A DNA stretch of 64,000 bases from contig CAVUCU010000001.1 of NCBI GenBank assembly GCA_963740085.1, positions 1,024,001-1,088,000 on the forward strand. The letters are read 5' to 3'. This document shows positions 26,644-36,797 of the stretch, piece after piece. The stretch comes from Nitrospirota bacterium. GTDB lineage: Bacteria > Nitrospirota > UBA9217. Position numbers and translations under genes: made by a program. Each line of letters opens with the position of its first letter. Within the stretch, counting starts at the first letter, position 1. The notes below the pieces were generated by a model. It was not told where the DNA came from, searched no databases, and worked only from the letters and a program-made list of their open reading frames with translations.

Positions 26644-28329
26644 ATGGTAAACCTGCGCACATTCAAGAACGCAACCCCTTTCATTCTCACTGCGCTGACC
26701 GCTCTCGCTGCGTTTCTCGTGCTTTTTGCCTTTCGCTCTGCAGACGATAATCTGCTTTTCAACTGGCAGTGGGTTTTCACCCGAGAGAATATTAGCCGCA
26801 TTGTTCTTTTTCTCATCCTCGGCATGATCGCGGCCTATCTGCTTGCCCGGACAGCGGTCTTCGAGCGCAGCCCTGTCGCATTTCTCTTTCTCTTCTCGTT
26901 CGTGTCGGCAGCGCTCTTATGGACGGAACCGGAGCTGCTCATTGATGCCTCGCGGTATTTTACCCAGGCGAAGCACCTTGAAGTGTACGGGATCGAATAT
27001 TTCGTGCGGGAATGGGGCAGGGGCATCACGGCCTGGACGGATCTGCCCGCGGTCCCTTTTCTGTACGGCCTGGTCTTCACGTTGTTCGGTGAGAACAGAA
27101 TTTTCATTCAGGCGCTCACAACCTTTTTGTTCTCAGGGACCGTTGTCCTGACCTATCTCATCGGAACGACGCTGTGGACCAAAGAACTCGGGTTTTGTGC
27201 GGGAATGCTCCTCCTCGGCATGCCGGTCCTTCTTACCCAGGTACCTCTCATGCTTGTCGATGTTCCGGCGATGTTCTTTCTCACGCTTGCCATCTATACG
27301 TTCATGAAAGCGCTGGACCGCGGCGGGGCCGGAATGATCCTGCTGGCATCGCTCGCGCTGCTTCTTGCGGCCTTCTCCAAGTACTCAATGTGGATGCTGC
27401 TTTCTGTGTTAGGCATCATCCTCGCTGTTTATTGGAGACGGAATCCCGGGCCGGTGTTTCGCCGGTCCTTTGCGGTACTGGCGCTGTCCGTTGCGCTCAT
27501 TGGCATAGCGATAGCGCTGAAATTTGACGTATTCTCCGAACAGATCAGGCTTTTGTTCAGCTATCAAAAACCGGGTTTGCAGCGCTGGGGGGAGAGTTTT
27601 CTGTCTACCTTTTTTTTCCATATCCATCCGTTTATAACACTTGCTGCAATCTCCTCCCTCGTTGCAGCTTTCAAACAACGGGATCTCAGCTACGGGATCA
27701 TATGCTGGCCGATACTGCTCGTCCTTGCATTCGATATCAATCGGAGCCGGTATCTCCTGCCGGTTTTGCCCATGCTTGCCTTGACGGCCTCCTACGCATT
27801 CCAGAAGATTGAAAGGCGGGAGTTGAGAAGGTTTATTGTTTTCGTCATCGTCATCTCCTCGCTGATAACGACCACGTTCGCTTATCTCCCGTTTGCACGA
27901 AGAACGAGCGCGGAAAACATAAAAGATGCCGGTGAGTATCTGAATGCCCTCGGGAGTGAGGCTGTCGAGGTCTTTACCCTGCCTCTCAGAGACCCTGTCG
28001 TCAATCCGTCGGTTGCCGTTCCGATCCTTGATCTCTACACGCAAGCGAGCGTACGGTATCAGTATCCTCTCGGATTGTTCCCGCCGCCGGGCAATATTGA
28101 AACATGGGCCTTGAGATTCACCTGGGAAGTTAACCACCCGCAGTATTACTCGACAACCGGCGCCTCAACAGCGCCCGCAGCGATCGCGATCATATCAGGA
28201 GAGCCGGTCAGCGTCCTCCCTCATGCACTGCAGCAGCGGATCAAGGGATATCGGCTGTCCAGGAGATTTACGGCTTCGTCCGATCCCTTCCGATATAAAA
28301 CGATCGTCGAAATATATACGGAGCAGTGA
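26644..28329 (+). CDS. ArnT/PMT-like (GT-C fold) membrane glycosyltransferase
   Basis: About 12 TM segments; 'IDASRY', 'P..PFLYG', 'LVDVP..FF', 'SKY', 'RYLLP..P'. Confidence 0.78.
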   Translation: MVNLRTFKNATPFILTALTALAAFLVLFAFRSADDNLLFNWQWVFTRENISRIVLFLILGMIAAYLLARTAVFERSPVAFLFLFSFVSAALLWTEPELLIDASRYFTQAKHLEVYGIEYFVREWGRGITAWTDLPAVPFLYGLVFTLFGENRIFIQALTTFLFSGTVVLTYLIGTTLWTKELGFCAGMLLLGMPVLLTQVPLMLVDVPAMFFLTLAIYTFMKALDRGGAGMILLASLALLLAAFSKYSMWMLLSVLGIILAVYWRRNPGPVFRRSFAVLALSVALIGIAIALKFDVFSEQIRLLFSYQKPGLQRWGESFLSTFFFHIHPFITLAAISSLVAAFKQRDLSYGIICWPILLVLAFDINRSRYLLPVLPMLALTASYAFQKIERRELRRFIVFVIVISSLITTTFAYLPFARRTSAENIKDAGEYLNALGSEAVEVFTLPLRDPVVNPSVAVPILDLYTQASVRYQYPLGLFPPPGNIETWALRFTWEVNHPQYYSTTGASTAPAAIAIISGEPVSVLPHALQQRIKGYRLSRRFTASSDPFRYKTIVEIYTEQ

Positions 28330-28587
28330 CACTGGTGATTTTCTCATTATTCTCTCAATTGCCTCTCATGCCCCGCCGAGCAAATAACCTTGACACACGG
28401 AGAACAGTAGTTTAGCATTCTCAAGAGGCACTTCCTGACGCTTCCGACCGGTCACGGGATGGGTCTCTTCCGGATGCGGGCGGCCTGCTCGTTCGCAGTA
28501 ATCATTTTTCGATCAAGCTGGCGTGCTTCACCGCCTTTTATGCACCCAGCAGCACGTCGCAGCGGAAACAGAGAACGGGACTGCCCA

Positions 28588-30000
28588 TTGAGTAACACCA
28601 GCAACGACATCATCATCCTCGGCGGCGGTCTTGCCGGACTCTCCGCAGGCCATGTCCTGACGAATGCGGGATCACGCGTTCGCCTGTTCGAACGCGATCA
28701 TACCGTCGGCGGTCTTTCCAGGACGATCATGAAGGACGGATTCCGCTTCGATCTTGGCGGCCACCGGTTTATCACGACCGACGCGACCATCGATGCGTTC
28801 GTGAGAGAGCTCATGGCGGACGAGCTGGTCACGGTTTCGCGCAGCAGCAAGATATACCTGCGCGGGAATTATTTCGATTATCCGCTCCGGCCGTTGAACG
28901 CAATGTTCGGCATGGGCATTCCGGCGACGGCGAAGATCATCGCCGACTATGGCCTGGAATCGATTAAACGGCTGGTCAAACAGAGGCGGATCGTTTCGCT
29001 CGAGGACTGGGTGGTCAACAATTTCGGCCGAACCATGTTCTCCCTCTATTTTCAGCAGTACAGCGAAAAGATATGGGGCATTGACTGCAGCAGAATCAGC
29101 GCGGAGTGGGTCGCTCAGCGCATCAAGGGACTTTCCCTGGCAAAGGCGATTAAGCACGCTTTCTTCAGGCCGAACGGGAGAGCGCTGCCGACTTTCGCCG
29201 ACAGGTTCCTCTATCCGCGCCTGGGCATCGGGCGCATTGCCGACAGGCTCAGGGAGGACATAGAACGTCGGAATCAGGTGGTTACCGGCGCGAACGTGCT
29301 GAGGATCAACCACTCCGGCCAGACGATAGAGGACATCCTGGTCGAAAACGAGCAGGGCCGGCAGGTCGTCGGGGGGGAAGCATTCGTCTCAAGCATACCG
29401 GTAACCCAGCTGGTCCGGAGACTCCATCCGGCACCGCCTCAGGCTGTTCTGGATGCCGCTTCAACGCTCAGGTTCAGAGACCTCATCGTCGTGGCGATCA
29501 TGCTCGACCGGGAGCGGGTCACCGACCAGACCTGGATATACCTCCCGGACCGGCAGATCCCCTTCGGCAGGATCCATGAACCGACGAATTGGAGCAGAGC
29601 CATGGCTCCCGCAGGCAAGACCCTGCTGGTGATGGAGTTCTTCAGCTTCCGGGGTGATGCGGTCTGGAATGAACGGGATGAGCGCCTCGCGTCCATGGCG
29701 GTCGACAACCTTGAGCAGCTCGGCTTTATTGAAAAACGGGATGTCCTTGACCATGTCGTTGTACGGGTGCCGAACGCCTATCCGCTGTTCGAGGTCGGCT
29801 ACCGGAAACGCTGCGATGTACTCCTTGACTACCTGGGCAGGCTTACCAATCTGCACCTCACGGGCAGAAGCGGCTTGTTCCGGTACTACAACATGGACGT
29901 CGCGATCAAATCGGGGAGAGAAACGGCAGAAAGGATGTTACGCGGGGAACGCGCCGCGAGCGGCGAGAAATCACGAGATCCGATCCTTACGCATACCTGA
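28588..30000 (+). CDS. FAD-dependent oxidoreductase (protoporphyrinogen oxidase/UDP-galactopyranose mutase-like)
   Basis: 'IILGGGLAGL', 'FDLGGHRF', 'AYP', 'GRSGLFRYYNMD'; TTG start inferred. Confidence 0.85.
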   Translation: MSNTSNDIIILGGGLAGLSAGHVLTNAGSRVRLFERDHTVGGLSRTIMKDGFRFDLGGHRFITTDATIDAFVRELMADELVTVSRSSKIYLRGNYFDYPLRPLNAMFGMGIPATAKIIADYGLESIKRLVKQRRIVSLEDWVVNNFGRTMFSLYFQQYSEKIWGIDCSRISAEWVAQRIKGLSLAKAIKHAFFRPNGRALPTFADRFLYPRLGIGRIADRLREDIERRNQVVTGANVLRINHSGQTIEDILVENEQGRQVVGGEAFVSSIPVTQLVRRLHPAPPQAVLDAASTLRFRDLIVVAIMLDRERVTDQTWIYLPDRQIPFGRIHEPTNWSRAMAPAGKTLLVMEFFSFRGDAVWNERDERLASMAVDNLEQLGFIEKRDVLDHVVVRVPNAYPLFEVGYRKRCDVLLDYLGRLTNLHLTGRSGLFRYYNMDVAIKSGRETAERMLRGERAASGEKSRDPILTHT

Positions 30001-30001
30001 T

Positions 30002-31468
30002 ATGAAGTGCGCATTCATCATACCGGCATGGACGCCGGAGAATATCTTTTCCTCAAAGACGGCGAGCTCGCAGATTAACTACTGGCAGCCGGTCGGCACC
30101 CTCCTGGTGGCTGCTGTCCTCCGCCGGGCAGGGCATGAAGTCACTTTTTTGAACGGCGCTTTCATGACCCATGAAGAGATATGCAGGCATGTTGAGATTT
30201 TCAGTCCGGAATTTATCGGTATCTATTCCACGACCTTTGGATGGGTAAAAGCGAAACAGACGGCAGAGGACCTGAAAAGAACGTATGCTCGAAACGCTTT
30301 CCTCTGTGCAGGAGGCCCCTATCCTATTGCAGTGCAGGAACAGTGCCTCCGGGATGCCGGCACCTGCCTCGATGCAATAGTCACCGGCGAAGGGGAATTC
30401 ACCACCCTCGAAATAGTGGAACGGCTGCAAGCCGGCGCAGGCCTTGAAGGGGTTCTTGGCGCCGCATATTGGGAGGACGGAAAGATCATCAAAAACCTGC
30501 CGCGCCCGTTCATCACGGACCTGGATTCCCTCCCGATTCCCGCGAGAGACCTGTTGGGCGATGCAAATCGGTATATCCCTCCTCCCGGTACCTACCGGAA
30601 AAAACCGGTCGCCGTAATAATAACTTCGAGAGGATGCAACAGGCGGTGCATTTATTGCTTTCAGATGGACAAAGAGCGGAAGAGCGGTATCCGCTACCGC
30701 AGCGTCCTGAACGTGCTGGATGAGATAGAACTCTGCATCAGGCAGGGGTATAAGGAGATCAAATTCCTGGACGATACCTTTGCCGCTGATTACAACAGGG
30801 CCATGCAGATAGCACGGGCCATAAGGGAACGAGGGCTCAACTTCACGTGGTTTGCCTCGGCCTGTGTCAACCAGGTGGACAAGCCCTTGCTCAAGGCCTT
30901 CAAGGACGCAGGATGCTGGGCCATTCTTTTCGGCGCGGAGAGCGGGGTCCAGAAAAATCTCAACACCATACGCAAAGGGACGACCCTTGCGCAGATAACA
31001 AGGGCGGTAAGGGATGCACAGGAGGTCGGGCTCCAGGTCAGTACTCCGTTCATGTTCGGCATACCCGGTGAGACCTTTGAAGAGGGTCTTCAGACCATTC
31101 AGTTCGCCGTTGAGCTGGACCCTGACATGGCGAACTTTCACGCGATCACGCCATTTCCGGGCACCGAACTCTACGACAATCTGGATCTCTATGGGACCAT
31201 TTCCGACGATCTCACGGACTTCACGTACCAGGGTGCGGCGTTCATCCCTTTTACCATGACACGCGAGCAGATCTTGCAGCTGCGACAGATCGCGTTTAAA
31301 CGGTTCTACTCCAGGCCTTCATTTATATTCAAAAAACTCCTCCAGGTCAGAAACTGGCATGATTGCCTGGCAGCCGCCAAGAGCGCAAAAAGCTTATTCT
31401 GGCTGTGGAGAAAAAACAATCTCTTTCTGGAAAAGGCTGCTCTGAAAAAAGGGCGCGTCCGCTGCTGA
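30002..31468 (+). CDS. Cobalamin-binding radical SAM protein
   Basis: N-terminal B12-binding domain ('GGPYP', 'GEGE'); 'SRGCNRRCIYC'; 'DDTF'; 'GAESG'; 'PFPGT'. Confidence 0.92.
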   Translation: MKCAFIIPAWTPENIFSSKTASSQINYWQPVGTLLVAAVLRRAGHEVTFLNGAFMTHEEICRHVEIFSPEFIGIYSTTFGWVKAKQTAEDLKRTYARNAFLCAGGPYPIAVQEQCLRDAGTCLDAIVTGEGEFTTLEIVERLQAGAGLEGVLGAAYWEDGKIIKNLPRPFITDLDSLPIPARDLLGDANRYIPPPGTYRKKPVAVIITSRGCNRRCIYCFQMDKERKSGIRYRSVLNVLDEIELCIRQGYKEIKFLDDTFAADYNRAMQIARAIRERGLNFTWFASACVNQVDKPLLKAFKDAGCWAILFGAESGVQKNLNTIRKGTTLAQITRAVRDAQEVGLQVSTPFMFGIPGETFEEGLQTIQFAVELDPDMANFHAITPFPGTELYDNLDLYGTISDDLTDFTYQGAAFIPFTMTREQILQLRQIAFKRFYSRPSFIFKKLLQVRNWHDCLAAAKSAKSLFWLWRKNNLFLEKAALKKGRVRC

Positions 31469-31732
31469 AGGGTCAATGCCTGCTCTTCGCCCCAACGCAT
31501 CGTCTTTCCCCAACGGTGCGGCTCTCCGGGGGATGCGAGTCGTATGGCTTCCGGGGGAGAGGGCCCTGCGTGATGATCAGGTTCATGCCAACCACCTCCG
31601 GAGCATCGCCGGTCTCGACGAACGGGCGCCTGTCATGCTGCCTCAAAGACCTCACCGCTGTTTAACAGGCATCTCTATTTATAACCAGACATCATTGCTA
31701 TCTGCAAGTTTATGCAAAATTATACAATTAGG

Positions 31733-31761
31733 TTGACAAATACGCAATGTAGTTCTAAGCT
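31733..31761 (+). promoter_or_regulatory. sigma70-type promoter of rhodanese-porin operon
   Basis: TTGACA-17nt-TAAGCT in an AT-rich intergenic region. Confidence 0.6.
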
Positions 31762-31949
31762 CATATTAATGATTTAATGAAACCATCGTGTAATCGTAAG
31801 CAGCGAAGCACCTCAATTACTTACTGCATTATATTATTTTACGCGTACCATGGAGATACTGAATCCTTAGTCTTATGAACAGGAGGTGAAGGGGTCGATT
31901 GGGGTGAGTTCTTTTTGTCCAGGCACATTTAATGAAAAGGAGGCCGCGA

Positions 31950-33623
31950 ATGGATTTTCCAAACAAGCATCGGAAACGTTTCTCATGGCAACTCGTGGTA
32001 TTAGCATTGTGTCTCTTGCTGGTTCCCATCGTCATAAACGGCTGCAGCTCCAGCAGTTATGACACCCCGGTAACCGCTCAGACATCTGCGACATTAATCT
32101 CTCCGGAAACGCTCAAGACATGGACAGACAGCGGGATCGTGAACAGCACGGGTTTCGACCGGGTCGTGATCCTCGACGTCACCTCCTTGGCGACCTACAC
32201 CGCAGGCCACATCCCGGGCGCGCAGTTCGTGAACAGCAATGACATCTATCAGGTCCGCCAGGAAGGCCCCGCCACCGATGTCAACATGGTCATTGACGGC
32301 GCGCACATGGACGCCCTGGTCCAGAAATACGGGATCGACAAGGATACCACCGTCGTGTTCACCAGCGGAGCAGCGTCTCCCGGTGCAGGTTCCGTGCTCA
32401 GCGCCACGCGGGGCTATTGGACATTCCGGTACTGGGGATTCCCGAAGGAAAAGCTCAAGCTGCTTGACGGTATCAATTTTGCCTGGAATGCAGCCTACGG
32501 CCTGGCCACGGAGATCCCTCCCGCACCGACGCCTTCCACCTACAGCGTGAAGAACAATGCGCAGTTGCGCACGGACCTCAGGGCATCCCTGAGCGATATG
32601 ATCAACGTGGCTGAGGGCAAGGTGGCGAATGCCGTACCGGTTGACATGAGAAGCGGACCGACGGACGGATCGTATGTGGGCAAGCGCGGCTCGACCACCG
32701 GCGTCTTCAATCCGGGAAGCGATTATGTTGCTTTCGAAGGCCGCTTGAAGGGCGGCAAGGCCCTGCTGTATACGGACATGCTCGATCCTGCAAACAATTA
32801 TCGTTTCAAGTCGGCCGACGTCCTTGCCGCCATGTTCATGGCCATCGGGGTCGACAGCACGAAATATGCCCATGTTTACTGAAGGACCGGAGTGATCGCC
32901 AGTTCGGCGTTCTTTGTTCTTGATGCAATCCTTGGTTGGCCGGTCGCAGACTATGACGGTTCATGGAGCCAGTGGGGGCAGATGGCTGCTGCAAATAATG
33001 ACAACGGCGGAATGTTGACCGCAGATTCTCCGTGGAGGACGGACGTCCCCTCCCGCAGCGAGCTCTTCGTTTACAACTACGATACAACGGCAGGCCCGGT
33101 GTTCTATACGTCGGTTTCCACGACGGTAACCGGCCTGAACGACATGACCGCGGGAGGAGCCTTCAGCGGAACAGCGAGCAGGTATTTCAGGGTTCAGATC
33201 GACGGCTCAGGCACGCCTGATACGTTCAAGTGGTGGCTCTCGAGCAGTGCTACCAATACAGTGTGGAACGCTCAAAACGTTCCCGTCTCGGCCGGAACAT
33301 TCACTCTCGGTGAGGGCATGACCGTCTCCTTTGCCACAACGACGGGCCATACCGTTAGCGACCGGTGGGATTTCATCACCAAGAGGGCGGTGGAGAGGCT
33401 TGCGCTTGACGGCAGTATCTGTTCAAGCAGTACGAGCGTGGCCGGCGTGACGACCTATAGTCCCGCAGGATGCACTCCCCTGCTGCCCAATTCGTATGCT
33501 CCGTCGGGGAATGAGATCGAAGAGGAAGATGCCACCTATTTCGGGGTCGGCGGCAGCGGCGGCAGTAGCGGAGGCGGCGGTGGCCCCATAGCGCCGGGAT
33601 ACGCACCGGGATTGTTAAAATGA
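31950..33623 (+). CDS. Selenocysteine-containing tandem-rhodanese lipoprotein (ExtH-like), 557 aa with Sec at residue 311
   Basis: AGGAGG SD; lipobox INGC; 'GHIPGA'; ORFs 31932-32882 and 32892-33623 are in one frame joined by TGA-AGG-ACC-GGA (HVY-U-RTG); 'YDGSWSQW' rhodanese C-terminal signature lies after the UGA. Confidence 0.88.
32883..32920 (+). promoter_or_regulatory. Putative bacterial SECIS element
   Basis: Upper stem CGCC/GGCG with loop AGUUC starting 18 nt after UGA; lower stem AGGA-C-CGGAG / CUUUG-UUCU using GU pairs (folded by eye). Confidence 0.7.
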
Positions 33624-33886
33624 AGTCGACTGTCACCAGCGTCATTGTGACAGCATGCATGCTCGCAGCGGGTGTACCGGTGGGAACCGTTCTTGCGGGA
33701 TCAAATGGCGAAGCGGTGCATCCGCAGCACAATACGACGACCGAGAGCCCTTTTGAAGGAGACCATGAAGGCAAAGGAGCCGAAGAAGGACTGTCTTCGA
33801 AGGAAACCGACACTCGGAAAAACATCATGTCTCCGCAGAAGAAACCTCGTCTGAAATATCGTGACGAGTCAAAGTGCTCGTGTTAG
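33620..33886 (+). CDS. Small exported protein with C-terminal CxC (…KPRLKYRDESKCSC)
   Basis: Signal peptide ending VLA; disordered acidic middle; sits between rhodanese and porin genes. Confidence 0.65.
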   Translation: MKSTVTSVIVTACMLAAGVPVGTVLAGSNGEAVHPQHNTTTESPFEGDHEGKGAEEGLSSKETDTRKNIMSPQKKPRLKYRDESKCSC

Positions 33887-33942
33887 TATGAGGTATGGCA
33901 ATAAAGTCATGCAACGTATCGGCGCATATTAAGGAGGCTTTC

Positions 33943-35202
33943 ATGAGAAAATCAGGAATTACATTATCCGCGTTGCCAGCGGGGGCATGTCTCGCGGTAC
34001 TGCTATTGATCGGCGTACCCGCTCTCGCCCAGCAAACAGAACCCGCGGTTCAGACAACTCCTGCGAACCAGCCGGATACTGCAAAAGATGCAGGAACGCA
34101 GCAAATAGTGGACGCGCTGTCTTCGATCAGGTTGAACTATGCGTTTCAACTTTACGGACAGTGGAGGGACACGGGCTCCGGGCCGAAGGGAACGGACAAT
34201 ACAAGCGACATCTACTTTAAGAGAGACCGGCTCATGATGTCGGGACAGTTGGATGATGTCTACAGCTTTTATTCCGCTGTTCAATTCCAGGGGGACGAGA
34301 GGATCTTTCCCACCGATGTAACCACGACACCGTCGAAAAACTTTGACATCATTGACACGTACCTGAGCGCCGACTACACGGATGCGTTCCGGCTTCGTGC
34401 AGGACTGACCAAGGACCCGATGATACGGGAGCAGAACGAGAGCTGCTTCGAGCCTCTCAGCGTTGACCGGTCCTATTTTGATTACACGAACCTGCCGCGC
34501 TTGAATCGCGATTTCGGCCTCGTTGTGTGGGGAAATGTCGCCGACGCGCTATTCCAATACAGGGTAGCGGCAATGAAGGGCAATGACGACAGCAACGACC
34601 CAAAGAGCTCTCTGCGGTACACGGCACGGGTCCATGTCTCGCTCCTGGACCCCGAGTATTCGATCAGCTACAAGGGAACCTATCTCGGCCAGAAAAAGGT
34701 CCTGACCATCGGCGCAGGCTACCAGCTGGAGCCGGATGCTGTGTATGGAAATGTCGCCGGAAAGGATGGCGCAAAGGATTATAAGGCGTACACATATGAC
34801 ATTTTTTTCGAATATCCGACACCTGCCGGAACGTTCACAGCTTCCGGTGCATATCTTAAATTGGATTTTCAGGGTGCATATCAAGGTGCAGATCCTGACC
34901 CGCGGAGTATCGGCCTGAATGGAGAGAAAAAAGGCTGGTACACTAAAGTCGGGTATCTTCTGCCTGTCAAGATCGGAACGGGCGCACTCCAGGTCTACGG
35001 CCGCTATGAACAATGGAGATTTGCAGATCTTGCTGCAATTGTAGATCAGGAAATAAAATGGTCAGCTGTCGGTGTCAACTATTTTCTCAAAGGGCAGGAC
35101 CTGAGGCTCACCCTTGAATATTCAATGAACGATTACGAAAAGGAAGACGCTAACATTAAGGACTTTAAGACCGTCTCCGCAATGCTCCAGCTTCGTATTT
35201 GA
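33943..35202 (+). CDS. OprO/OprP-like anion porin (ExtI-like)
   Basis: AAGGAGG SD; signal peptide; 'DIYFKRDRL', 'RAGLTK', 'LSVDRS', 'RD.G.VVWGN', 'GVNY..KG..L.LT'; amphipathic beta strands. Confidence 0.85.
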   Translation: MRKSGITLSALPAGACLAVLLLIGVPALAQQTEPAVQTTPANQPDTAKDAGTQQIVDALSSIRLNYAFQLYGQWRDTGSGPKGTDNTSDIYFKRDRLMMSGQLDDVYSFYSAVQFQGDERIFPTDVTTTPSKNFDIIDTYLSADYTDAFRLRAGLTKDPMIREQNESCFEPLSVDRSYFDYTNLPRLNRDFGLVVWGNVADALFQYRVAAMKGNDDSNDPKSSLRYTARVHVSLLDPEYSISYKGTYLGQKKVLTIGAGYQLEPDAVYGNVAGKDGAKDYKAYTYDIFFEYPTPAGTFTASGAYLKLDFQGAYQGADPDPRSIGLNGEKKGWYTKVGYLLPVKIGTGALQVYGRYEQWRFADLAAIVDQEIKWSAVGVNYFLKGQDLRLTLEYSMNDYEKEDANIKDFKTVSAMLQLRI

Positions 35203-35229
35203 CGCATGAATCCTGCCTGACGACATGAC

Positions 35230-35268
35230 ACTTCAGGGGGCGTGCAAGATGCCTCCTGAAGTTTTTTT
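35230..35268 (+). terminator. Intrinsic terminator after porin
   Basis: ACTTCAGGGGGCGT / ATGCCTCCTGAAGT stem + T7. Confidence 0.88.
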
Positions 35269-35839
35269 ATGGTAAACGAGGCGCGCGGAAGCATGCAGGG
35301 AGATGCGCTGATGCGGCGGGATGAAAAAGCCTTTCAACGTTTACCTTGAAGATATCCCGTTGCGAGAGCAGGATATCGTTTCGGATTGAAGGGGATCTTA
35401 GTCGTGACAGGGCACTCATGGGCGCACTGGCATCGATCGTCGCATATGGCATCAATTGTCGTTCCGGCCTTTTCAGTTCTCAACATCCCTGCCGGGTCAT
35501 CGTTCTGCGTTCTTATATTGCCGAGACCTTCTGTCGACATTTCTCACGGACCCACATAACCACTCTCTTCAAAAAGCTCGATTCAGCCTTCCCGTGCAGC
35601 GGGGTATGATCCGCGTTTATTCGTACGCTGACAGGCAGACCCAGCGGCGCTGCGAGATGTGCGGTTTCACATGTCAGATGCCATGATAAACCGTACTTTT
35701 CCGAGTGCGTTCGGGCAGCTGCAGTGGAGATGGATCTCGTGCCCCGCGCCCGGACAGAGAAGCATACCGCCAATCGCCACAGGGCATTGTCCGAATCTTG
35801 AGGATGAAACGGGACGAGCGGGCGCATGAGTTCATTCCG

Positions 35840-35905
35840 CCGTTTGTCCGCGGCTTGACAACCGTTTGTCCGCGGCTTGACAGCGAGGACACCTCGTGGT
35901 ACCTT
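35840..35905 (+). promoter_or_regulatory. Promoter with 22-bp tandem duplication containing TTGACA
   Basis: ccgtttgtccgcggcTTGACA twice (35840, 35862); second copy is 17 nt from TACCTT, which is 7 nt before ATG35913. Confidence 0.7.
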
Positions 35906-35912
35906 GCATGCC

Positions 35913-36797
35913 ATGGCACCGGTCATCGAAGTAAAAGATCTCATCAAGACCTATCCGGGCGTGCGCGCGGTGGATAATGTCAGCCTGACGATCCATCAAG
36001 GCATCTGCTTCGGCCTGCTCGGACCGAACGGAGCGGGCAAGACCACGCTCATCGAGATCATCGAAGGTATCCAAAAATGCGATTCCGGCGCCACGCTGTA
36101 CAAAGGCGCGGCAATAGGCCCCGCGTTTCGGAAAGAAGCGGGCATCCAGTTCCAGGTCACGTCACTCCAGGAATTTCTGACCGTGCGCGAAACACTGCGG
36201 CTGTTCAAGAGCCTCTATCCGCAAACCATGGACATACCGGAGGTCATCCGCCTGTGCAGTCTTGATGAATTCCTCGACCGGGACACGCGCAAACTTTCCG
36301 GCGGCCAGCGTCAGCGGCTTCTGATGGCCCTCGCCATTATCAATGATCCTGAAGTGCTCTTCCTCGACGAGCCGACGACCGGCCTCGACCCTCAGTCGCG
36401 ACGGAATTTCTGGGACCTCATCAATCTCATCAAGTCCTGGAACAAGACGATCGTGCTGACCACGCACTATATGGACGAAGCCTACACGCTCTGCGATGAG
36501 ATCGCGATCATGGACCGAGGAAAGATCATCGCGCAGGGACCTCCCGAGGCTCTGCTCAAGGAGCACTTCGGCAATGTGGTGCTGCAGTTTCCGGAAGAGG
36601 ACGTGAACGACAAGCTCGAAGGGCTCGGGCTCTGCACGTCGAAACAAACGGGATGGTGCGAGATACAGACGCACGATATCGATGACACGATCAGAACGCT
36701 CCTGGGCCGCGGCGTCTCGTTGTCGCGGATGAACATGCGGTCCTGGAGCCTGGAAGACCTGTTCCTCTCGCTCACGGGGAAGGATCTGAGGGGCTGA
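35913..36797 (+). CDS. ABC-2 type exporter ATP-binding subunit
   Basis: 'GPNGAGKT', 'LSGGQ', 'LDEPTTGLDP', 'TTHYM'. Confidence 0.93.
   Translation: MAPVIEVKDLIKTYPGVRAVDNVSLTIHQGICFGLLGPNGAGKTTLIEIIEGIQKCDSGATLYKGAAIGPAFRKEAGIQFQVTSLQEFLTVRETLRLFKSLYPQTMDIPEVIRLCSLDEFLDRDTRKLSGGQRQRLLMALAIINDPEVLFLDEPTTGLDPQSRRNFWDLINLIKSWNKTIVLTTHYMDEAYTLCDEIAIMDRGKIIAQGPPEALLKEHFGNVVLQFPEEDVNDKLEGLGLCTSKQTGWCEIQTHDIDDTIRTLLGRGVSLSRMNMRSWSLEDLFLSLTGKDLRG

Follow-up and report, generated by a model that had tools for sequence, protein, structure and literature searches.

The stretch analyzed here (the window) comprises 64,000 nucleotides of the genome of a soil Nitrospirota bacterium (UBA9217 lineage; contig CAVUCU010000001.1, positions 1,024,001 to 1,088,000 of the forward strand). 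The list of its open reading frames (ORFs) and the sequence itself place three co-oriented genes for exported proteins on the + strand between positions 31950 and 35202: extH, for a rhodanese-like lipoprotein with a predicted selenocysteine (Sec); a small gene, for a protein with a CxC end; and extI, for a predicted porin. The features of this locus are as follows.

31734–31762, + strand: candidate sigma-70-like promoter, weak; TTGACA-17 nt-TAAGCT, read from the sequence, with a -10 hexamer of 3/6.

31950–33623 (alternative upstream ATG at 31932), + strand: extH; NF040901 and PF00581.

32880–32882, + strand: predicted UGA selenocysteine codon, HVY-U-RTGVIASS, aligned with the catalytic Cys of homologues.

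32892–32912 (hairpin 32894–32912), + strand: candidate selenocysteine insertion sequence (SECIS), GAUCGCC-AGUUC-GGCGUUC, a block without synonymous change.

33093–33491, + strand: inserted beta-rich domain of ExtH, about 130 amino acids (aa), placed by alignment A2 and by strands 405–510 of the AlphaFold 2 (AF2) model.

33510–33620, + strand: C-terminal tail of ExtH; NEIEEEDATY, a Gly-rich run, PIAPGY, and six extra residues, APGLLK, without cysteine.

33620–33886, + strand: small secreted protein, 88 aa, conserved in 13 loci.

33833–33883, + strand: invariant C-terminal motif of the small protein, P-x-K-K-P-R-L-K-Y-R-D-x-x-x-C-x-C-COOH.

33943–35202, + strand: extI; NF040900 and PF07396, 16-stranded AF2 model.

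34414–34506, + strand: ExtI loop between strands 5 and 6, at the L3 position; the C139 codon is at 34444–34446.

35230–35272, + strand: intrinsic terminator; 14-pair stem at 35230–35262 with seven G-C pairs, a 5-nt loop, and a T-run.

The genes are closely packed. The extH stop overlaps the small-gene ATG (ATGA at 33620–33623), and the extI ATG at 33943 lies 56 nt 3' of the small gene and has the ribosome-binding site AAGGAGG. Directly 5' of the ATG at 31950 is the ribosome-binding site GGAGG. This ATG is a likelier start of extH than that at 31932 because of the GGAGG site, because M7 is nearly invariant in alignment A2 (29 ExtH genes), and because the public gene call begins there. Judging from the tight junctions and the single terminator, the three genes probably form one operon and are co-transcribed. 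An earlier reading of this DNA (the sequence-only reading) had described one promoter, three co-oriented exported proteins, and one terminator. The ORFs and the strong terminator, with its 14-bp stem and T-run, were found at the expected place. The promoter stood only in part: TTGACA-17 nt-TAAGCT is present, but its -10 hexamer is only 3/6, and the consensus promoter scan listed no + strand site 5' of extH, not even this one. The sequencing runs listed for the stretch are five soil-metagenome DNA runs from two studies.

ExtH scored 313.6 bits on the NCBIfam equivalog NF040901 (ExtH, 'selenite/tellurite reduction operon rhodanese-like protein'; cut-off 200), covering model positions 5–393 of 430, and 306–307 bits in the genome-wide search; it also matched Pfam Rhodanese PF00581. 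Both extH and extI occur in single copy in the genome. The lipobox, ...VINGC-SSS, contains a cysteine (C38 in the numbering based on 31932) that is invariant in 29/29 aligned genes. The AF2 model has a predicted local distance difference test score (pLDDT) of 82.4, with both rhodanese domains above 90, and its best PDB matches in Foldseek are the tandem sulfurtransferases 1uar, 3aax, and 8q5z (E ~1e-17). By its sequence and modelled fold, ExtH is thus a predicted tandem-rhodanese outer-membrane lipoprotein with Sec at the catalytic position. The inserted domain is modelled with a pLDDT of about 75–84 and is present in the close relatives of the window and in L086/L087 (alignment A2). No family was found for this domain in Pfam, and its best ESM Atlas matches (0.87) were unnamed viral clusters, which are uninformative. 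The public gene calls split ExtH at the TGA into proteins of 310 and 243 aa, both nameless. In the ExtH proteins of L031 and L032/L083, whose genes adjoin extI, the catalytic Cys has been replaced by Ser or Gly while the Cys-containing tail is kept; judged from these substitutions, their rhodanese domains cannot be classical sulfurtransferases.

The extH frame is open from 31932 or 31950 to 33623 only with readthrough of the TGA at 32880–32882, which is located at the catalytic Cys site (HVY-U-RTGVIASS versus YVH-C-RTGVIASA in Cys-type homologues). TGA occupies the catalytic codon in 10 of the 29 aligned ExtH genes. ExtH above the cut-off was found in 24 of 401 sampled Nitrospirota genomes, 11 of which have one in-frame TGA in the gene, and the position of the TGA was confirmed in 12 distinct Sec-type sequences as well as in L079. 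We compared synonymous change among nine Sec-type genes with about 54–84% protein identity to the window ExtH. Codons +4 to +10 after the TGA show no synonymous variation (0/7) and are identical in 9/9 genes, in contrast to the other invariant non-Trp/Met codons between -20 and +34, all of which vary synonymously (19/19). The case for the SECIS rests on these comparative data because the single-sequence fold of 32870–32960 is no more stable than shuffled sequences (z = 0.99). An Rfam scan of 31000–36000 at E up to 10 gave two chance-level matches and no SECIS or riboswitch family, and is uninformative for the SECIS. The divergent Sec genes L030/L033 and L063 have other sequences and also form, at about +23 to +32, a hairpin whose loop contains GU. 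The genome carries the Sec machinery: tRNA-Sec, selA (608 bits), selB (376 bits), and selD (351 bits). The reading of the TGA as selenocysteine is well supported because the hairpin is free of silent changes, the homologues have Cys, and selA, selB, selD, and tRNA-Sec are present. In the ExtI tree, Sec and Cys forms of ExtH are intermixed inside the small-gene clade. Two further observations concern selenocysteine. The SelD gene (C1:750805-751725) has one in-frame TGA and probably encodes a Sec-containing selenophosphate synthetase. A Cys-type extH with TGC at the catalytic codon (L024:3207-3270) still folds an AGUU-loop hairpin at the SECIS position, which looks like a leftover of a recent Sec-to-Cys change.

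ExtI scored 447.4 bits on the NCBIfam equivalog NF040900 (cut-off 150) and 48.5 bits on Pfam Porin_O_P PF07396 (cut-off 20.9), the latter indicating membership at the superfamily level only. The mature protein was modelled by AF2 with 16 strands and a pLDDT of 89.2, and the top Foldseek matches were OprO (4rjw) and OprP (2o4v), with a TM score of about 0.6 and 14–15% identity. ExtI is accordingly modelled as a 16-stranded OprO/OprP-like outer-membrane porin. A profile built from 32 ExtI sequences gave no PDB match at E up to 1, OprP and OprO included. The single Cys of mature ExtI, C139, is invariant in 32/32 sequences from Nitrospirota, Geomonas, and other phyla. It is located inside the best-conserved stretch of the protein (K128...R133-E134..E137.C139..P142-L143..D146-R147-S148), in which R133, E134, L143, D146, and R147 are the invariant flanks. 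In the AF2 model, C139 is in a 31-residue loop between beta5 and beta6, bracketed by strands E120-128 and E160-170 with pLDDT above 90; by strand count this loop is L3. L3 of classical porins bends into the lumen, where it makes up the constriction. PMC5877670 names the single Cys of ExtI only as a typical trait of outer-membrane proteins.

The small protein (88 aa) has a signal peptide and a mature chain of about 62 aa that ends KKPRLKYRDESKCSC (...KCSC). The mature chain begins with a conserved (A)MGSKG-like segment, continues with an acidic stretch of low complexity, and closes with the invariant motif; it is probably disordered. Conservation in alignment A3 is limited to the two ends, the invariant columns being P72, K74, P76, R77, K79, Y80, R81, C86, and C88, and both terminal cysteines are invariant in 13/13 loci. 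The isoelectric point is 4.9 for the first 45 mature residues and 9.6 for the last 17. The protein had no Pfam match and no NCBIfam match at E up to 0.1. Only 33 relatives, all of 64–121 aa, were retrieved when a profile was searched against 1.84 billion representatives, and the CxC end is present in 31 of these 33 cluster representatives. In the ESM Atlas, the best matches (0.89) were unnamed clusters, and the YbgS-like (0.85) and PcoE-like (0.82) clusters are leads only. In 11 genome loci at the species level, the gene is flanked by a GY-ended extH and by extI. Among 16 metagenome contigs carrying it, extH is upstream in 15 and extI downstream in 12, the remainder being cut by contig ends. 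Wherever the flank is on the contig, the small gene was found only between a GY-ended extH and extI. The nine loci with the small gene in the 32-row ExtI tree form one clade (support 97/94). The small protein is thus a rare, unnamed family and a clade-specific addition.

The elements named by the sequence-only reading held up on this examination: a Sec-rhodanese (Sec at the catalytic position, with NF040901 and Pfam Rhodanese matches), a CxC-tailed micro-protein (signal peptide and ...KCSC C-terminus), and an extHI pair orthologous to Geobacter ExtH/ExtI (both equivalog cut-offs cleared widely). That reading had also considered that the porin might cluster with phosphate porins unrelated to ExtI; its 447.4 bits on NF040900 place it with ExtI.

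Two other identities were considered for the small protein. It is not ExtJ: the ExtJ model NF040942 gave no match, while a Geomonas ExtJ used as a control scored 81.2 bits (cut-off 52.5). The idea that the small gene encodes the precursor of a ribosomally synthesized and post-translationally modified peptide, raised by the B12 radical SAM gene upstream, was set aside in view of the Sec-type (secretory) signal peptide and of the L021/L023 trio, which lacks the radical SAM gene. We also predicted the complex of ExtI with the mature small protein. The ipSAE score was 0.59 (0.59, 0.57, and 0.60 in the individual runs), that of the best control was 0.01, and the result was graded 'weak support'. 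Of 157 solved complexes, 116 attain the mark, as do 2 of 215 mismatched pairs; these counts hold only roughly here because our own alignments were used. Scores of 0.60 or less were seen for only 18 of the 157 solved complexes and for both passing mismatches. Contact agreement among the runs was 51% or more, with a partner pLDDT of at least 38 (about 39–40). This result was kept out of the evidence.

Some side observations were made on the small gene. In another Nitrospirota family, a different ORF of 100 aa is located between a GY-ended extH and extI (L080:10087-10389). It has a signal peptide, an AMG mature start, and an acidic middle, ends ...KPEYDLSDCCC, and has no NCBIfam match; it is possibly analogous or distantly related to the window small protein. 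One relative, P0027, contains the tail motif twice, as ...KKPRLKYWDPYEG... and ...KKCRLKYFDPYECGC, the functional end having been duplicated within the protein. The small gene, the end of extH, and an extI with 72% identity to that of the window are also present on a 5.2-kb contig (L012 / L096) that is binned as Betaproteobacteria, owing to either mis-binning or transfer.

The ExtH tails vary in their cysteines. The motif N-x-I/V-E/N-x-x-D-x-x-[Y/C], followed by a Gly run and G-[C/Y]-COOH, is present in 28 of 29 ExtH homologues, and the tail is modelled as disordered (residues 540–563 with pLDDT below 50 in AF2). The Cys-ended tail as a feature of ExtH is our reading of the alignment and not a published definition. 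Three patterns were seen. Tails of the form Y...GC-COOH occur in 11 loci, including those of Geomonas, and the small gene is present in 0/11. Tails of the form C...GY-COOH occur in 10 loci, five with the KKPRLKYRD gene and one with the CCC-ended ORF. Tails of the form Y...GY-COOH, with no Cys, occur in seven loci including the window, all with the small gene (7/7). The swap of Tyr and Cys between lineages suggests that the two positions meet as a functional pair. The window ExtH retains the motif and the Gly run and ends PIAPGYAPGLLK, without Cys. In this gene the stop usual after APGY has been replaced, which added APGLLK and created the ATGA overlap with the small gene.

The order extH, small gene, extI was found in 9/9 close ExtI loci. 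A profile search yielded 25 loci, of which 18, including two Geomonas genomes, have extH directly upstream of extI; the other seven have an ExtI-like porin alone. In Geomonas, the pair is followed by ExtJ, MccSep, and 12-, 10-, and 4-heme cytochromes, which is the canonical cluster. Among 20 further Nitrospirota stretches, extH and extI are side by side in 15, the misses having ExtH or ExtI alone, and no ORF with at least two CxxCH motifs was found in any of the 15 stretches with the pair. The synteny of the pair holds across families and phyla, and in the sampled Nitrospirota extH-extI without cytochromes is the rule, not an exception. Of the expectations of the sequence-only reading, co-conservation was borne out by the same gene order in every related locus with intact flanks, and no multiheme cytochrome gene was found within about 13–15 kb on either side of the operon. 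Its description of the locus as a 'minimal variant' has to be dropped, the cytochrome-free pair being common among the Nitrospirota loci examined (0/15 stretches with an ORF of at least two CxxCH). Some Nitrospirota genomes have a second ExtI. One of these (L085; G103:C59), which scored 610.8 bits on NF040900, falls with the Geomonas type in the ExtI tree and has a 13-heme ORF about 5 kb away; another (L084; G022:C37) has 8-, 5-, and 5-heme ORFs alongside and no extH.

The genome itself contains 35 ORFs with at least three CxxCH motifs, the nearest at C1:1,148,638, about 90 kb downstream of extI. An orthologue of MccSep (ExtKL) is encoded at C1:787685-789007 (L020:8686-10008), about 267 kb from extH. 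It contains five CxxCH motifs, scored 585 bits to PDB 9wt9/9wt8, and has a TGA in frame at the position of U325 in the solved enzyme; its neighbors (a GH57 branching enzyme, DUF4912, and a PAS-GGDEF protein) are unrelated. MccSep-like matches were found in 119 of all 401 sampled genomes and in 46 of the 64 genomes of the organism's own family. Among ExtH-positive genomes, they were found in 16 of 27: 14 of 17 within the own family and 2 of 10 outside it. In these counts, kin are not independent. The genome has dsrA, which marks the organism as a dissimilatory sulfur organism. On a contig other than that of extH-extI, an ORF (C6:11036-11257; L106) scored 52.4 bits on the ExtJ model, a borderline value at a cut-off of 52.5.

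Starting from the protein identities, the Sec codon with its SECIS, the synteny, the folds, and the cysteine conservation described above, we infer which substrate is handled, in which direction it is transferred, that the relay is covalent, and what the small protein does. We consider it moderately probable that the stand-alone extH-extI operon encodes an outer-membrane module for chalcogen capture or transfer. At the outer membrane, ExtH and ExtI would take up selenite or zero-valent sulfur, the latter as polysulfide or possibly thiosulfate, and move it inward. Sec of ExtH would bind the chalcogen covalently, as an Se-S or Se-Se adduct, and would hand it to thiols in or near the pore, namely C139 of ExtI and the CxC terminus of the small protein. 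The final acceptors would be periplasmic, for example the unlinked Sec-heme polysulfide reductase MccSep. In this clade, whose ExtH tail is without Cys, the small protein would probably dock on ExtI as a cysteine-tipped accessory. A stricter form of the proposal, which we think unlikely, is that the chalcogen crosses the outer membrane by a covalent relay and not by diffusion, from Sec317 to the small-protein CxC and on to the ExtI loop Cys. Sec317 of a surface- or periplasm-facing ExtH would take up sulfane sulfur or selenium, and the small protein, a trans-acting arm replacing the Cys-tipped ExtH tail of other lineages, would thread its basic KKPRLKYRD-xxx-CxC end into the ExtI pore and exchange the chalcogen with the beta5-beta6 cysteine.

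Several observations weigh against the proposal of a capture module. The ExtH tail of L079 (F...PGY) has no Cys and the locus has no small gene; therefore, a trans Cys arm is not obligatory. Conversely, five loci with a Cys-containing ExtH tail carry the small gene too. The flanking genes, for an FAD oxidoreductase, a B12 radical SAM protein, and an ABC-2 exporter, point to no link with sulfur. An obligatory coupling of ExtH-ExtI to MccSep was rejected, since each occurs without the other and only 2/10 ExtH-positive genomes outside the own family have both; the co-occurrence is loose, and therefore the acceptor may be something else.

One alternative is that the operon serves selenium or tellurium handling and not sulfur respiration, ExtI being a selenite/tellurite channel and Sec-ExtH binding or reducing the oxyanion for selenoprotein synthesis or detoxification. 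The only experimental phenotypes of ExtI are defects in selenite/tellurite reduction and uptake in Geobacter (PMC5877670, PMC8981825, as far as their available parts go), NCBIfam names both families as 'selenite/tellurite reduction operon' proteins, and the genome makes several selenoproteins (ExtH, MccSep, and SelD). However, a selenite phenotype may be a side activity, as has been argued for MccSep, which acts on polysulfide physiologically and on selenite in vitro (PMC13510729), and the published ExtI homologues are mostly from sulfur-cycling bacteria (PMC5877670). The presence of dsrA speaks against a role in selenium and tellurium only, and an outer-membrane system devoted to a trace element would be out of the ordinary. 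We give this alternative a low probability. It also seems improbable to us that the small protein is no sulfur carrier at all and instead serves as an ExtI plug, a gate, an assembly factor, or a metal-binding periplasmic peptide, with ExtH and ExtI forming a passive anion pore beside an ordinary sulfurtransferase and no thiol relay. Such a role would accommodate the basic KKPRLKYRD stretch, which is conserved as strongly as the CxC, the L079 locus with neither tail Cys nor small gene, the ExtH homologues without a catalytic Cys (Ser in L031, Gly in L032), and the nearest named Atlas clusters, YbgS-like and PcoE-like, which at scores below 0.9 are leads only. Against it stand the invariance of the terminal cysteines in 13/13 loci and the retention of the CxC end in 31/33 representatives; the ExtI Cys, invariant in 32/32, argues against an arrangement without a relay, and the Cys/Tyr swap in the ExtH tail suggests a functional pairing.

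A further explanation would be an ordinary phosphate-selective porin beside a thiosulfate:cyanide sulfurtransferase, with no joint function and with the TGA as a true stop or an assembly error. Pfam does place the porin in Porin_O_P, and the public gene calls treat extH as two ORFs. Nevertheless, ExtI reaches 447 bits on the ExtI equivalog, while the 32-sequence ExtI profile is without any PDB match; at least 12 distinct genes share the TGA at this codon, and the hairpin is conserved; and the extH-extI synteny extends across families and phyla. These results largely refute a phosphate porin, and we regard this explanation as very improbable.

If the operon is a chalcogen capture module, it bears on sulfur respiration. 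MccSep is the polysulfide reductase of sulfur respiration, and how polysulfide gets through the outer membrane is, according to the same work, unclear (PMC13510729); ExtH and ExtI are obvious candidates for this route. The covalent relay, if true, would be the missing step that brings extracellular S0 or polysulfide to MccSep. In sulfur-cycling Nitrospirota, the pair is a module of its own with wide conservation. Of the ExtH proteins of these bacteria, about half are predicted selenoproteins, and here the gene has been split by public calls; the pore has an invariant cysteine in its beta5-beta6 loop, and one clade has added a cysteine-tipped micro-protein. The Sec, the CxC end, and the pore Cys offer concrete mutable residues for testing the passage of a chalcogen over thiols and a selenol.

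The surroundings of the operon differ among relatives. Upstream of extH (26644–31468 in the window; other loci L026, L081, L082, L090, and L092), a PMT_2-type glycosyltransferase gene occurs in several relatives. In some of these it is accompanied by genes for a PRK07208-type FAD oxidoreductase and a B12-binding radical SAM protein with weak likeness to HpnJ/BchE, also in a different family of the phylum (65% identity). In L021 and L023, the trio is kept without this oxidoreductase and radical SAM pair.

In Geobacter sulfurreducens, ExtH (GSU2940) and ExtI (GSU2939) are encoded in extHIJKLMNOPQS; they belong to the same equivalog families as the window proteins and their genes have the same order. 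Loss of extI in Geobacter impairs selenite and tellurite reduction (PMC5877670), and the membrane localization of ExtH depends on ExtI (BBRC 2019 work as described in PMC8981825). Like its Geobacter counterpart, the window ExtH is a rhodanese lipoprotein that has an acidic N-x-I-E-x-E-D motif and a C-terminal tail rich in Gly, and the window ExtI likewise is a porin with one cysteine (PMC5877670), which is invariant in 32/32 sequences including Geomonas. On the other hand, the window ExtH has a catalytic Sec where Geomonas ExtH has Cys, its tail is APGY(APGLLK) without Cys where Geomonas ends in GGGGC, and it contains the beta domain of about 130 aa that Geomonas ExtH lacks. Unlike the Geobacter cluster, the window operon has the extra small gene between extH and extI, is adjoined by none of ExtJ, ExtKL, and ExtM-S, and has no LysR regulator seen beside it. 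ExtJ (GSU2938; NF040942) is similar to the small protein in that it is small, exported, encoded in the same neighborhood, and has a Cys at or near the C-terminus (Geomonas ExtJ ends ...CEGDELQGC). Its gene follows extI, whereas the small gene of the window lies between extH and extI, and ExtJ looks beta-rich by eye, whereas the window protein has a low-complexity middle (partner pLDDT about 39–40).

Two sulfur carriers offer a working analogy only. Sud of Wolinella succinogenes is a polysulfide-sulfur transferase, a periplasmic carrier of the rhodanese type that feeds polysulfide reductase, and SoxY carries sulfur on the C-terminal Cys of a flexible arm. In the window, the partner is a porin, the putative carrier is anchored in the outer membrane and has a catalytic Sec, and the cysteine-tipped end is on a separate 62-aa protein ending in CxC. 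With OprP and OprO, the phosphate and diphosphate porins of Pseudomonas aeruginosa, ExtI has in common the 16-stranded barrel and PF07396, but the loop motif with the invariant Cys is specific to ExtI. The expression of Geobacter ExtI shows no response to phosphate starvation (PMC5877670).

Selenoproteome surveys have predicted Sec-containing rhodaneses of the COG2897 type with a UxxG motif (PMC13188914, PMC1088965, PMC1976440). These are tandem rhodaneses with a catalytic Sec, and the U-R-T-G of the window ExtH fits 'UxxG'. In the available parts of these surveys, they are listed without a lipoprotein, porin partner, or ExtH assignment, the comparison being one of motif and description. A rhodanese with Sec is therefore no novelty as such, and both main proteins belong to known families. 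Within a limited literature search, what appears to be new is the assignment of Sec to ExtH, the CxC micro-protein family, the tail patterns, and the common occurrence of a cytochrome-free extH-extI pair in Nitrospirota.

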